NCBI GenBank assembly: GCA_965214775.1
Contig: OZ243974.1
Span: 832,001 to 896,000 of the forward strand
Source: Nitrosopumilus sp.
GTDB lineage: Archaea > Thermoproteota > Nitrososphaeria > Nitrososphaerales > Nitrosopumilaceae
Direction of reading: 5' to 3'
DNA: 64,000 nt
The notes under the pieces were generated by a model. It made no database searches. It was not told where the DNA came from and worked only from the letters and a program-made list of their open reading frames with translations. Both the position numbers and the translations under genes were made by a program. Shown piece after piece: positions 2,100-4,457 of this stretch. The first letter of the stretch is position 1. Each line of letters starts with the position of its first letter.

Positions 2100-2627
2100 A
2101 TGCAACATGCTGCACGGATACACGTAAGCGGAATCGTCCAAGGCGTCGGTTTTCGCTACCGGGTAAGGAGCGAGGCAGGCCGCCGGAGAATCACCGGACA
2201 CGTCGAGAACCTTGAGGACGGCACGGTCATGATAGAGTGCGAGGGCAAAAGGGAGGACATTGAGGGGCTTGTCGCCTCAATAAGGGACAGCAAAGAGCCG
2301 GTGCAGGTAGACGACATCGACGTGCAGTACTCAGAGGGTACCGGAAGGTTCAAGACATTCAGGATAGTGGCAGGAAACATGGAAAGCGAGATTGTCGAGG
2401 GCTTTGCTACCGGTGCCATGTACCTGAATGACATTGCCGCAGGGCAGAGACAGATGCTGGACAAGCAGGATCAGATGCTGGACAAGCAGGATCAGATGCT
2501 GGACAAGCAGGATCAGACCATAACGGAGATCCGAGATCTTTCATCCAACATCCACGAGATGCTTGACTCTCGGTTCGAGAGGATAGAAAACGACATAACC
2601 AAGATAAAATCAAAACTGCAGATATGA
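2100..2627 (+). CDS. acyP: acylphosphatase with C-terminal coiled-coil extension (QMLDKQD x3)
   Basis: VSGIVQGVGFR...ITGHVENLEDGTV signature; 21-bp repeats at 2451-2513. Confidence 0.85.
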   Translation: MQHAARIHVSGIVQGVGFRYRVRSEAGRRRITGHVENLEDGTVMIECEGKREDIEGLVASIRDSKEPVQVDDIDVQYSEGTGRFKTFRIVAGNMESEIVEGFATGAMYLNDIAAGQRQMLDKQDQMLDKQDQMLDKQDQTITEIRDLSSNIHEMLDSRFERIENDITKIKSKLQI

Positions 2628-2836
2628 CCCGCATCTGCCGGGGTGCGGTAAGGCCATAGGCCTGAACAATGAACTGACGCGCCCTAGGATGCGGCGTGAG
2701 GTACATGATGATCAGGATCTTGTCCGGCAGTGCAGCCTAGGGAGTGGTGGGATAAACTCCAATATCAAATTATGCTGATTCCTTGCAGTATGAGACGTTA
2801 TATCAAATCTTATCTGTAGCGGACGCCATATTATCC

Positions 2837-2970
2837 GTGTTGGGCCCAAGAGCCGAAGTAAACTTGCCACACATGAGGGCGCGTAAGAGACTGGCTCAGA
2901 GTAGACGGACGACGAAATGCCACATAATCGAGGGCGAATGGGAGTTTTCCGTTCAGTTGGGCACACACAC
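2837..2970 (+). ncRNA. putative IS110 bridge RNA (two internal-loop hairpins inside a closing stem)
   Basis: Closing stem gtgttgggcccaa/ttgggcacacac; loop 1 gagcc...ggctc; loop 2 acgga...tccgt; both loops have an apical gcc...ggc stem; lies directly upstream of an IS110 transposase start. Confidence 0.6.
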
Positions 2971-2994
2971 TTTGATCAAAAAGGAGGTGATAAA

Positions 2995-3154
2995 ATGATC
3001 AACATAGGAATAGACGTTCATAAGAAGACATGGTAAGAGTTTACCCCTCAGGCGACTCTGCTGGTCGGAGCCTTGATCACCGTGCCTACCACGTCGTATT
3101 TTCTGGAGGGGGTGAGCTCTTACGAAGACATGTATAGTAACCATCAAAGACCAG
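2995..3154 (+). pseudogene. IS110-family (DEDD) transposase N-terminal remnant, disrupted by MITEs
   Basis: SD aaggaggtga then MINIGIDVHKKT[MITE]CIVTIKD, matching the IS110 GIDVHK motif. Confidence 0.75.
3033..3123. mobile_element. 91-bp IS66-related MITE
   Basis: gtaagag...ctcttac ends; 9-bp duplication gaagacatg; end gagtttacccctcaggcg shared with the IS66 end at 62387. Confidence 0.88.
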
Positions 3155-3236
3155 GTACAACTTCAGGTCCTATTTATACTGGCAAGCAAATACTTCCTAG
3201 ATTCCTAGGCGGTTTAAATAGGACCTGAAGTTGTAC
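3155..3236. mobile_element. 82-bp MITE with 22-bp perfect TIR
   Basis: gtacaacttcaggtcctattta...taaataggacctgaagttgtac. Confidence 0.8.
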
Positions 3237-3370
3237 GAAGTCTTTGAGTCAAAGTAGGTCATAACTACACGTAAAAAACCTCAATTATTTCTGCTCGTTG
3301 CTATACAAACAGTCGAGGCCTTTGACGGGCAATCTGACCGTGTTTTGACTCAAAGACTTTTACTGTTGCC
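3237..3370. mobile_element. truncated copies of the MITE seen intact at 63087-63165
   Basis: gtctttgagtcaaa...ttctgctcgttgcta nearly identical to 63102-63165; an inverted end tttgactcaaagac lies near 3344-3357. Confidence 0.7.
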
Positions 3371-3434
3371 ATATTATTGGTACATTTTTCGAATGAACCA
3401 CTTTGCTAATTATTCAAAACGAGTATTGCGGATC

Positions 3435-4457
3435 ATGGCACTTGGAGAGACTAGTACAAAATATTCCGTATCCAATCAAGAGATACAAAATCTAAGTGAT
3501 GATGCCCAAAAATACTCTGAAAAACTATTGGGAATATTTGATGAAACTCACAAGGTCATTATCGGACAAGAGAACGCACTGCAAAAAATCCTCATCTCAA
3601 TTATTGCAGACGGACATGTGCTTTTGGAAAGCGTTCCCGGTCTTGCTAAAACTTTGATGGTAAAAACCATGGCACAAATTTTCAATGTAGATCACGTTAG
3701 AATTCAATTTACGCCAGATCTCTTGCCTGCAGATATTTTAGGAACAAAAATTTACAAAAATTCTTCGGGTTCCTTTGTCACCCAAAAGGGCCCAATCTTT
3801 CACAATTTTGTTTTAGCTGACGAAATTAATCGCGCACCGCCCAAAGTCCAGTCTGCATTGCTTGAGGCAATGCAAGAAAGGAATGTGAGCATTCATGGCG
3901 ATACCTATGAACTAAAACGGCCGTTTTTGGTTCTGGCCACCCAAAACCCGATTGAAAACGAAGGAACATACAGGCTTCCAGAAGCCCAGGTTGACAGATT
4001 TGCCCTGAAAATCCTACTTGATTATCCATCAAAGCAAGAAGAGATGGATATCATCGAGAGAAATTCTTCAAACTACAACCCCGAAATCAAAGCAATGGTT
4101 AGCCCCGAAGAAATTCTAGAGATTCAAAAGTTTAATGAGAAAATTTACGCCGATAAAGTGATCACTGAATATATTGCAGATATTGTCAACGCAACAAGAA
4201 ACCCAAAGGAATATGAGCTGGATTTAGAAGACATAGTTGAATTTGGCGCATCGCCAAGAGCATCAATATGGCTAATGAGAACAGCAAAGGCAAACGCGCT
4301 GCTTGATGGAAGGGGATTTATCATTCCTGAGGACGTAAAGGCAGTTGCTCACGAAGTCTTGCGTCATAGAATTATCCTGACTTTTGCAGCAGAAGCAAAC
4401 GGGTTGACTGCCGATAAAGTCATTGACTTTGTTTTAGAAAAAATTAATTCCCCATAG
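3435..4457 (+). CDS. moxR: MoxR-family AAA+ ATPase
   Basis: GHVLLESVPGLAKT, RIQFTPDLLPADI, DEINRAPPKVQSALLEAMQE, ATQNPIE, LPEAQVDRF. Confidence 0.95.
   Translation: MALGETSTKYSVSNQEIQNLSDDAQKYSEKLLGIFDETHKVIIGQENALQKILISIIADGHVLLESVPGLAKTLMVKTMAQIFNVDHVRIQFTPDLLPADILGTKIYKNSSGSFVTQKGPIFHNFVLADEINRAPPKVQSALLEAMQERNVSIHGDTYELKRPFLVLATQNPIENEGTYRLPEAQVDRFALKILLDYPSKQEEMDIIERNSSNYNPEIKAMVSPEEILEIQKFNEKIYADKVITEYIADIVNATRNPKEYELDLEDIVEFGASPRASIWLMRTAKANALLDGRGFIIPEDVKAVAHEVLRHRIILTFAAEANGLTADKVIDFVLEKINSP

Follow-up and report, generated by a model that had tools for sequence, protein, structure and literature searches.

A probable bridge RNA gene in the left end of a decayed IS110/IS1111-family element in a Nitrosopumilus genome

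Bridge RNAs were previously predicted for most IS110/IS1111 elements (PMC11208160). In IS621 the bridge RNA is encoded in a long left end upstream of the recombinase gene and contains a target loop and a donor loop (PMC11208160, PMC11208158), and the element also accepts a bridge RNA given in trans (PMC11208160). In the seekRNAs of the IS1111 family, the complement of the top strand lies 5' of the match to the bottom strand (Siddiquee et al. 2024, PMC11187229). IS1111 elements have subterminal inverted repeats of 7 to 17 bp with asymmetric extensions of 7 and 3 bp (PMC11187229, PMC11208160). The noncoding RNA region is described as lying downstream of the recombinase in almost all IS1111 members, with "a few" carrying an upstream region, among which ISMtsp17 is named (PMC11187229). 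For ISPpu9, a structured 5' UTR that inhibits translation is reported (PMC12288879).

The window analyzed here is a 64,000-nt stretch of a Nitrosopumilus sp. genome (G000; contig positions 832001 to 896000), and unless a genome is named, positions are counted from its first base. G000 is a single 2.83-Mb contig, and its full-length match to the archaeal SSU model (1459 bits), the one model it was compared with, is consistent with an archaeal genome. The region of interest was found to be a mosaic of repeats. Positions 2600 to 2787 share 94% identity with G000 380174-379987, positions 2788 to 3032 recur at 95 to 98% identity in six or seven genomic places, and a 91-bp MITE at 3033-3123 is present in dozens of copies genome-wide. 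Unique contigs from four public sequencing runs cover 2623-2817 and 3087-3182 with zero differences; as the junctions in both intervals are spanned identically, they are not assembly errors. Within this mosaic, positions 2795 to 2994 are the noncoding left end of a decayed IS110/IS1111-family element, named IS-W here, which very probably carries a bridge (seek) RNA gene whose loop 1 reads the target and whose loop 2 reads the donor. The features of the element and its surroundings are as follows.

2640-2756, minus strand: MITE-like repeat; its minus strand starts TTTATCCC (2749-2756), the right-target side of an IS-W insertion site
2757-2787, minus strand: inverted remnant of another IS-W copy, with core AG (2757-2758) and the last 29 nt of the right end (2759-2787; minus strand TGCAAGGAATCAGCATAATTTGATATTGG)
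2788-2794, plus strand: left target GTATG (2788-2792) and core dinucleotide AG (2793-2794); every IS-W copy has GTA(T/A/C)G-AG as its flank
2795-2994, plus strand: IS-W noncoding left end, 200 nt, with subterminal inverted repeat ATATCAAAT (2800-2808) and Shine-Dalgarno sequence GGAGGTG (2983-2989)
2995-3032, plus strand: first 12 codons of the recombinase (MINIGIDVHKKT), followed by the MITE insertion point
3033-3123, no strand assigned: 91-bp MITE with 15-bp terminal inverted repeats GTAAGAGTTTACCCC / GGGGTGAGCTCTTAC, inside the recombinase gene
3133-3154, plus strand: recombinase ORF resumed (..CIVTIKDQ); IS-W homology stops at about 3154, other MITEs come next and the remainder of the gene is missing

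The left boundary of IS-W was located by comparison with its other copies. Homology of seven other genomic copies starts exactly at 2788, and all seven carry GTA(T/A/C)G-AG ahead of ACGTTATATC; the window junction reads GTATG-AG|ACGTT at 2794/2795, with AG as the core. The 9-bp subterminal repeat ATATCAAAT is complementary to ATTTGATAT of the IS-W right end, and outside the repeats the left side has AGACGTT and the right side GGG, with one core copy counted. The right end, the region after the recombinase stop codon, is short. Located via C-terminal recombinase fragments, it reads ...CCGGAATAATTTGATATGGG-AG and is followed directly by MITE sequence, its tip and core (TTTGATATGGG-AG) abutting TTTACCCC. 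An intact relative of 1349 bp with a 365-aa ORF was found in another genus (genome G250, locus L045), arranged as GTAAG-AG-(ACGTT...GATATGGG)-AG-TTTACCCC...GGGGTAAACTCTTAC, where parentheses enclose the element. From these boundaries and the arrangement in the intact relative, it follows that the natural target is the MITE terminal inverted repeat GTAAG-AG-TTTACCCC, with AG as the shared core; as the target is a MITE end, each MITE offers two oppositely oriented sites. Exact empty sites (GTAAGAGTTTAC) numbered 60 in G000 (116 with one degenerate base), and 11 left junctions were occupied. Downstream of 10 matches to the IS-W right-end motif, AGTTTA followed in six. The home family has AG as its core, and the more distant families have TG; GT, considered as the core of the family f3 loci, was discarded, the model-based junctions there giving TG. 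The MITE at 3033-3123 is flanked by a 9-bp duplication, GAAGACATG, at 3024-3032 and 3124-3132. Beyond the IS-W homology, two further MITE families occupy 3153-3237 and 3237-3305; the first, present in about 30 copies, is an almost perfect palindrome of 84 bp, and the second consists of a 69-bp unit repeated about 90 times in nearly identical form.

These boundaries differ from those proposed in the initial annotation, which placed the end of the element near 2754 with an A-rich core, took the 3' strand of loop 2 for a complement guiding to the element's own left junction and expected cgacgaaa of CGACGAAAT to match the right end. The two matches behind that proposal are truly present: ATGGGAGTTT (2938-2947) is complementary to AAACTCCAAT (2754-2763) at nine of 10 positions, and GAAGTAAAC (2855-2863) agrees with GGGATAAAC (2749-2757) at six of nine. 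They arise from the segment 2749-2787, a remnant, in inverted orientation, of the right end of another copy together with its target. The minus strand of this segment reads TGCAAGGAATCAGCATAATTTGATATTGG-AG-TTTATCCC, that is, the last 29 nt of the right end, the core and the start of the target, and it has matches in two right ends, one at G000 2382414 and one in the intact G250 element; at the core, the minus strand of the MITE-like repeat continues as AG|TTTATCCCACC.... Loop 2 contains ATGGGAG-TTT, the same sequence as the right-end/target junction, and is therefore complementary to the inverted remnant, while GTAAACT of loop 1 is complementary to AG-TTTAC and therefore resembles GGGATAAAC of the remnant. 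The matches point to a neighboring relic and not to the left junction of the element itself. The proposed boundary lies about 40 bases too far left, as the homology of the seven copies begins at 2788 and not at 2754, and the segment 2600-2787 is a separate repeat with 94% identity elsewhere. The intact G250 copy is likewise bounded elsewhere than proposed, reading GTAAG-AG|ACGTT, and CGACGAAAT, which has no match in the right end, covaries with the left end instead. Taken together, a boundary near 2754 with these guide assignments has next to no chance of being correct.

The predicted RNA lies within the 200-nt left end, with its core ending 29 nt upstream of the recombinase start codon, and comprises the following parts.

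2837-2966, plus strand: bridge RNA core, 130 nt as modeled (model R1), with closing stem 2844-2849/2957-2962
2850-2897, plus strand: predicted target-binding hairpin (hairpin 1), GAGCC 2850-2854 / GGCTC 2893-2897, inner GCC 2866-2868 / GGC 2878-2880
2905-2952, plus strand: predicted donor-binding hairpin (hairpin 2), ACGGA 2905-2909 / TCCGT 2948-2952, inner GCC 2919-2921 / GGC 2933-2935

To assess this structure across homologues, a covariance model (R1) built from six IS-W sequences only, on our own structure, was used. The model returned 40 full-length matches in 48 sources, of which 21 were in loci from other genomes; all 21 were situated just upstream of a recombinase ORF. The five helices 2 to 6 were 97.5 to 99% paired over the 40 homologues, with two-sided changes in 18 of 22 pairs, and slid controls were 30 to 42% paired. 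For the whole structure, 93.5% of cells were paired compared with 82.5% in shuffled alignments (none of 500 shuffles reached the observed value) and 22 of 26 pairs had changed on both sides, pair counts that favor the structure because the R1 alignment is fitted to its own model. The two hairpins described in the initial annotation are present in the sequence, and by the pairing across the 40 homologues they exceed chance. The closing stem, drawn there from 2837, was retained as an enclosing stem in the form GCCCAA 2844-2849 / TTGGGC 2957-2962; its outermost 4 bp (2837-2840/2963-2966) were rejected, being paired in 66.7%. Folding of single sequences was uninformative by comparison: the minimum free energy fold of 2749-2995 had ordinary stability (z = -0.47), and single-sequence folds of 25 homologues were inconsistent with one another. 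Because the families are shifted by 1 to 3 nt relative to one another, RNAalifold recovered only 4 pairs from a plain MAFFT alignment of 25 left ends. A scan of 2500-3500 against Rfam 15, which may lack such a family, gave no bridge RNA match at E values up to 10; it returned chance-level miRNA/snoRNA matches only, the best of them on the palindromic MITE (3144-3247). At loci L055 and L057 (genomes G117 and G335), the apical hairpin of the target loop has gained about 30 nt of G+C-rich sequence, with guides and stems kept.

Each hairpin contains a large internal loop, and the four strands of the two loops hold the candidate guides.

2855-2865, plus strand: loop 1, 5' strand GAAGTAAACTT, right-target guide; complementary to the sense strand of AG-TTTAC (core and right target)
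2881-2892, plus strand: loop 1, 3' strand GCGTAAGAGACT, left-target guide; GTAAG, core AG and a 2-nt handshake AC
2910-2918, plus strand: loop 2, 5' strand CGACGAAAT; bases 2-4 (GAC) form pairs with GTT at left-end bases 3-5, one of them a G.T wobble in the window copy
2936-2947, plus strand: loop 2, 3' strand GAATGGGAGTTT; ATGGG (right-end tip), core AG and TTT (right-target start)

Covariation between guides and DNA among homologues, which the initial annotation had named as the thing to look for, was found for all four guide segments, and one handshake was mapped. Loop 1 was kept at 25 of the 33 left junctions in G000, giving 21 unique flank/guide pairs. The left flank and the 3' strand of loop 1 were identical at 88 of 105 positions (shuffled mean of 44.9 and maximum of 76; 0 of 20000 shuffles reached 88), with the qualification that copies within one genome are kin, so that shuffle tests overstate their independence. 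Across the 40 R1 matches, the 9-mer of the loop 1 3' strand recurred 36 to 58 nt upstream with no mismatch in 20, one mismatch in 13, two in 2 and at least three in 5. Exceptions were L056, L058, L036 and L038, for which this test yielded no junction, and L055, which is offset by 3 nt. The left guide of the window copy (GTAAG-AG) differs from its own flank at one of seven positions. In 33 of 35 loci, the left end opens with the same dinucleotide (AC, AT, or AA) as the handshake that follows this guide.

On the right side of the target, the 5' strand of loop 1 was compared with the core plus right flank in 20 loci. The longest common word reached 5 nt or more in 16 of them and 6 nt or more in 11, compared with 6% and 2%, respectively, of 376 control pairs; in the remaining four loci the word was 4 nt or shorter, and some loci need a bulge of 1 to 2 nt. 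The donor guides were traced in the same way. The 3' strand of loop 2 contains ATGGGAG, which is identical to the tip of the right end together with the core, both in IS-W and in a related family of G000, referred to as Group A. At 28 of 35 loci, bases 2-4 of the loop 2 5' strand and left-end bases 3-5 formed three of three Watson-Crick pairs; at five more, the window copy included, the pairing contained a G.T pair. Six triplet combinations covary in this position (AAC/GTT, AGC/GCT, AGT/ACT, GGC/GCC, ATC/GAT, and GTC/GAC), a result reached by 6 of 20000 shuffles; as CGACGAAAT bases 2-4 covary with the left end, the suggestion that cgacgaaa reads the right end is wrong. For a possible second handshake in loop 2, both bases fit in only 10 of 20 loci, counted by eye. 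The covariation assigns target binding to loop 1 and donor binding to loop 2, in agreement with the division of labor that had been proposed, and together with the conserved fold it supports the original description of an IS110-family left end encoding a two-loop bridge RNA.

Covariation is visible because Group A elements were retargeted several times. Their left ends are 67 to 70% identical to that of IS-W, and the group consists of three intact 1334-bp elements with 376-aa frames, six 476- to 485-bp derivatives, and broken copies. The Group A recombinase shares 55% identity with the IS-W type, and these elements are its sole intact relatives in G000. While the ATGGGAG donor tip guide and the AG core are common to the two RNAs, their scaffolds differ in every stem. 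From its ends, a Group A circle junction of ...CATATGGG-AG-ACGCTATATG... would be expected. The six derivatives are located in G000 as follows.

181545-182022: Group A derivative
2787934-2788411: Group A derivative
808417-807934: Group A derivative
2726222-2726708: Group A derivative
2784516-2785002: Group A derivative
2831779-2831293: Group A derivative

The derivatives represent two deletion types, in which both ends and the RNA are kept and the recombinase is absent. Each has loop guides that fit the flanks of its own site, which would be expected had a recombinase provided in trans moved them. One Group A copy (A2169/L032, at G000 2169386) carries a guide for CTTAT and is seated at TCAGT, with four of nine mismatches to its flank; recombination between copies, or insertion via the RNA of another copy, is a possible cause. 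A Group A subfamily (m808, A549) sits within the left end of a second IS110-family type, Group B, at CAAAC-AG-ATT. Group B (G000 1626191-1627570 and relatives) has 378-aa frames and ends reading GTAACCATATGTGTC... and ...GACACATAGATA. Its left end is short, at about 135 nt, and its left flanks vary greatly; its deletion derivatives are roughly 580 to 600 bp, with at least seven copies.

The distribution of guides and derivatives bears on whether the structure is merely a leader at the 5' end of the recombinase mRNA, acting on translation or stability and having no guiding role. It does lie directly upstream of a strong, conserved Shine-Dalgarno sequence (GGAGGTG), and the inhibitory 5' UTR of ISPpu9 offers a precedent (PMC12288879). 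A leader, however, has no need of loop sequences that track the flanks and ends of each copy, and the 476- to 485-bp derivatives keep the structure, with guides that fit their own flanks, and lack the recombinase gene. A leader role alone is therefore highly improbable, and a bridge RNA remains the preferred reading.

By analogy with IS621, ISEc11, and ISEc21, the RNA would be made, be bound by the recombinase and direct strand exchange. Its core (2837-2966) is predicted to fold as a closing stem around the two hairpins and their large internal loops. Loop 1 would read the terminal repeat of the 91-bp MITE, GTAAG-AG-TTTACCCC: its 5' strand would pair with the sense strand of AG+TTTAC, and its 3' strand (GTAAG-AG) would pair with the antisense strand of the left target, followed by the handshake AC. 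Loop 2 would read the donor, a circle junction predicted as ...TTTGATATGGG-AG-ACGTT..., with its 3' strand (ATGGG-AG) pairing with the antisense strand of the right end and bases 2-4 of its 5' strand pairing with left-end bases 3-5. Exchange at the common AG core would then lead to insertion, with the core as the sole duplication.

The recombinase gene of the window copy is destroyed, as had been reported. An IS110 N terminus begins downstream of the noncoding DNA with an ATG at 2995 (ORF MINIGIDVHKKTW, followed by a stop). The MITE interrupts the gene after codon 12; read across the MITE, the sequence is MINIGIDVHKKTCIVTIKDQ, and the gene is then truncated, leaving a remnant of about 20 codons. 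Family recombinases matched the IS110-type domains PF01548 and PF02371, and a family protein scored 245 bits against NF033542, "IS110 family RNA-guided transposase" (cutoff of 140); their similarity to the IS621 and ISCro4 structures is distant, with an E value of about 1e-11. A tblastn search of G000 with the G250 recombinase identified IS-W-type fragments only and no intact gene; thus, IS-W is an extinct lineage in this genome with orphan RNA genes. The best copy (G000 403758-405123) is split by another MITE and is without a right end. Model R1 found 27 copies in G000 at E values up to 0.001, seven of which, scoring at least 160 bits, are of IS-W type, and none of these seven has a usable recombinase, a loss that looks like decay. 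In a 151-genome sample of the class, nine genomes had R1 matches at E values up to 1e-5, including G000 itself and the unpublished G132. Among 401 genomes of the class, 77 had the recombinase protein, representing 24 of 81 genera, a tally including the unpublished G283.

This state of the recombinase leaves the earlier suggestion that the window RNA might guide an intact copy in trans with no intact IS-W recombinase in G000 to serve. A variant of that suggestion is that the orphan RNA is still functional, being transcribed and used in trans by Group A recombinases at MITE ends. The RNA core is complete, the left end is 92% identical to that of the intact element in another genus, the ATGGGAG guide and AG core are held in common with Group A, 60 to 116 target-like sites are available in the genome, and IS621 takes a bridge RNA in trans (PMC11208160). 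The Group A recombinase is just 55% identical, however, with RNA scaffolds differing in every stem, and all seven high-scoring IS-W RNA copies are without a usable recombinase in a manner resembling decay. We therefore regard continued use of the window RNA in trans as unlikely. A broader form of the idea, in which the seven orphan RNAs outlived their cognate recombinases, are still transcribed and are loaded by Group A while the archaeal clade represents a stable third layout, seems similarly doubtful. If it were true, the guides of a dead element would keep steering recombination at 60 to 116 MITE-end sites, and a third layout, with IS1111-type ends and strand order and the RNA upstream, would be a record of the RNA gene's move between ends.

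As a bridge RNA in the left end of a decayed element, the window locus was compared with the described systems. IS-W has the features of the IS110 family as a whole, namely, a DEDD (RuvC-like) plus Tnp recombinase, a two-loop RNA fold, target guides, and donor guides. Like IS-W, IS621 has a DEDD/Ser recombinase and an upstream RNA with two internal loops (Durrant et al. 2024; Hiraizumi et al. 2024). In both, the two loops are each matched to both strands of the DNA around a 2-nt core, and in the target loop a 2-nt handshake comes directly after the 3'-strand guide (PMC11208158). The strand order is mirrored, however: the 5' strand in IS-W pairs with the sense strand of the right side, and the two orders agree only when the DNA is flipped, which places a CT core on the antisense strand. 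Subterminal repeats measure 9 bp in IS-W and 2 to 3 bp in IS621, and similarity to the IS621 protein is low (E value of 1.2e-11). With respect to the IS110 group in the strict sense (IS621, ISEc21), IS-W thus shares the upstream RNA but differs in its 9-bp repeats and reversed guide order. When ISEc21 was searched by k-mers for guide words, no target word was found at k = 7, and the donor words were only suggestive.

Similarities were also found with the IS1111 family. The seekRNA elements ISEc11, ISPa11, and ISKpn4 have the same guide strand order as IS-W, and the repeat length and the 7-bp left and 3-bp right extensions are shared (PMC11187229). As in IS-W, the target in IS1111 seekRNA elements, and in IS4321/IS5075 as cited there, is the end of a repeated element (PMC11187229). 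The difference lies in the RNA region, which is downstream in almost all IS1111 members as described in that source and upstream in IS-W. ISMtsp17, reported to combine an IS1111-type transposase and ends with an upstream noncoding region, resembles IS-W in its hybrid layout, a likeness drawn from its published description only (PMC11187229). Judged on ends and guide order, the IS-W layout appears IS1111-like, a hybrid with IS1111-like strand order and repeats and an upstream RNA. A tblastn search against plasmids gave matches of at most 38% identity with generic names, from which no subgroup was assignable. ISPpu9 and MITEPpu9 of Pseudomonas putida share with IS-W an invariant AG at both ends as the recombination site, and ISPpu9 is likewise reported to have targets in repeated elements and nonautonomous MITE-like derivatives flanked by IS ends (PMC12288879). 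ISPpu9 differs in being bacterial and of the IS110 group without inverted repeats, and MITEPpu9 differs in carrying the sRNA gene ssr9 and not a bridge RNA (PMC12288879).

The bridge RNA of the window is well supported and has an uncommon hybrid layout, but it belongs to a known system and was to be expected. None of the results for IS-W are unexpected, since most IS110/IS1111 elements had already been predicted to have bridge RNAs (PMC11208160). The analysis provides a dissection of a bridge RNA in an archaeal lineage made from sequence only. Within one 2.8-Mb genome, it documents natural "reprogramming" to at least five target classes ahead of AG (GTAAG, TCAGT, (C/T)TTAT, CAAAC, and TTAC). 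The mixed layout, with IS1111 features and an upstream RNA, bears on the divergence of the two groups of the family, and the 1349-bp G250 relative is a candidate compact archaeal bridge recombinase with target and donor defined.

Two further repeat-containing ORFs were observed in the window. On the minus strand at 1-1155, a transposase-like ORF runs off the window start and contains five tandem units of 18 to 19 aa (...DSADAVKNIKKEEEQSRT...). Just upstream of the feature described here, a 175-aa ORF at 2100-2627 ends in a C-terminal three-fold DKQDQML repeat, and the 21-nt DNA repeat behind these units spans 2449-2511.
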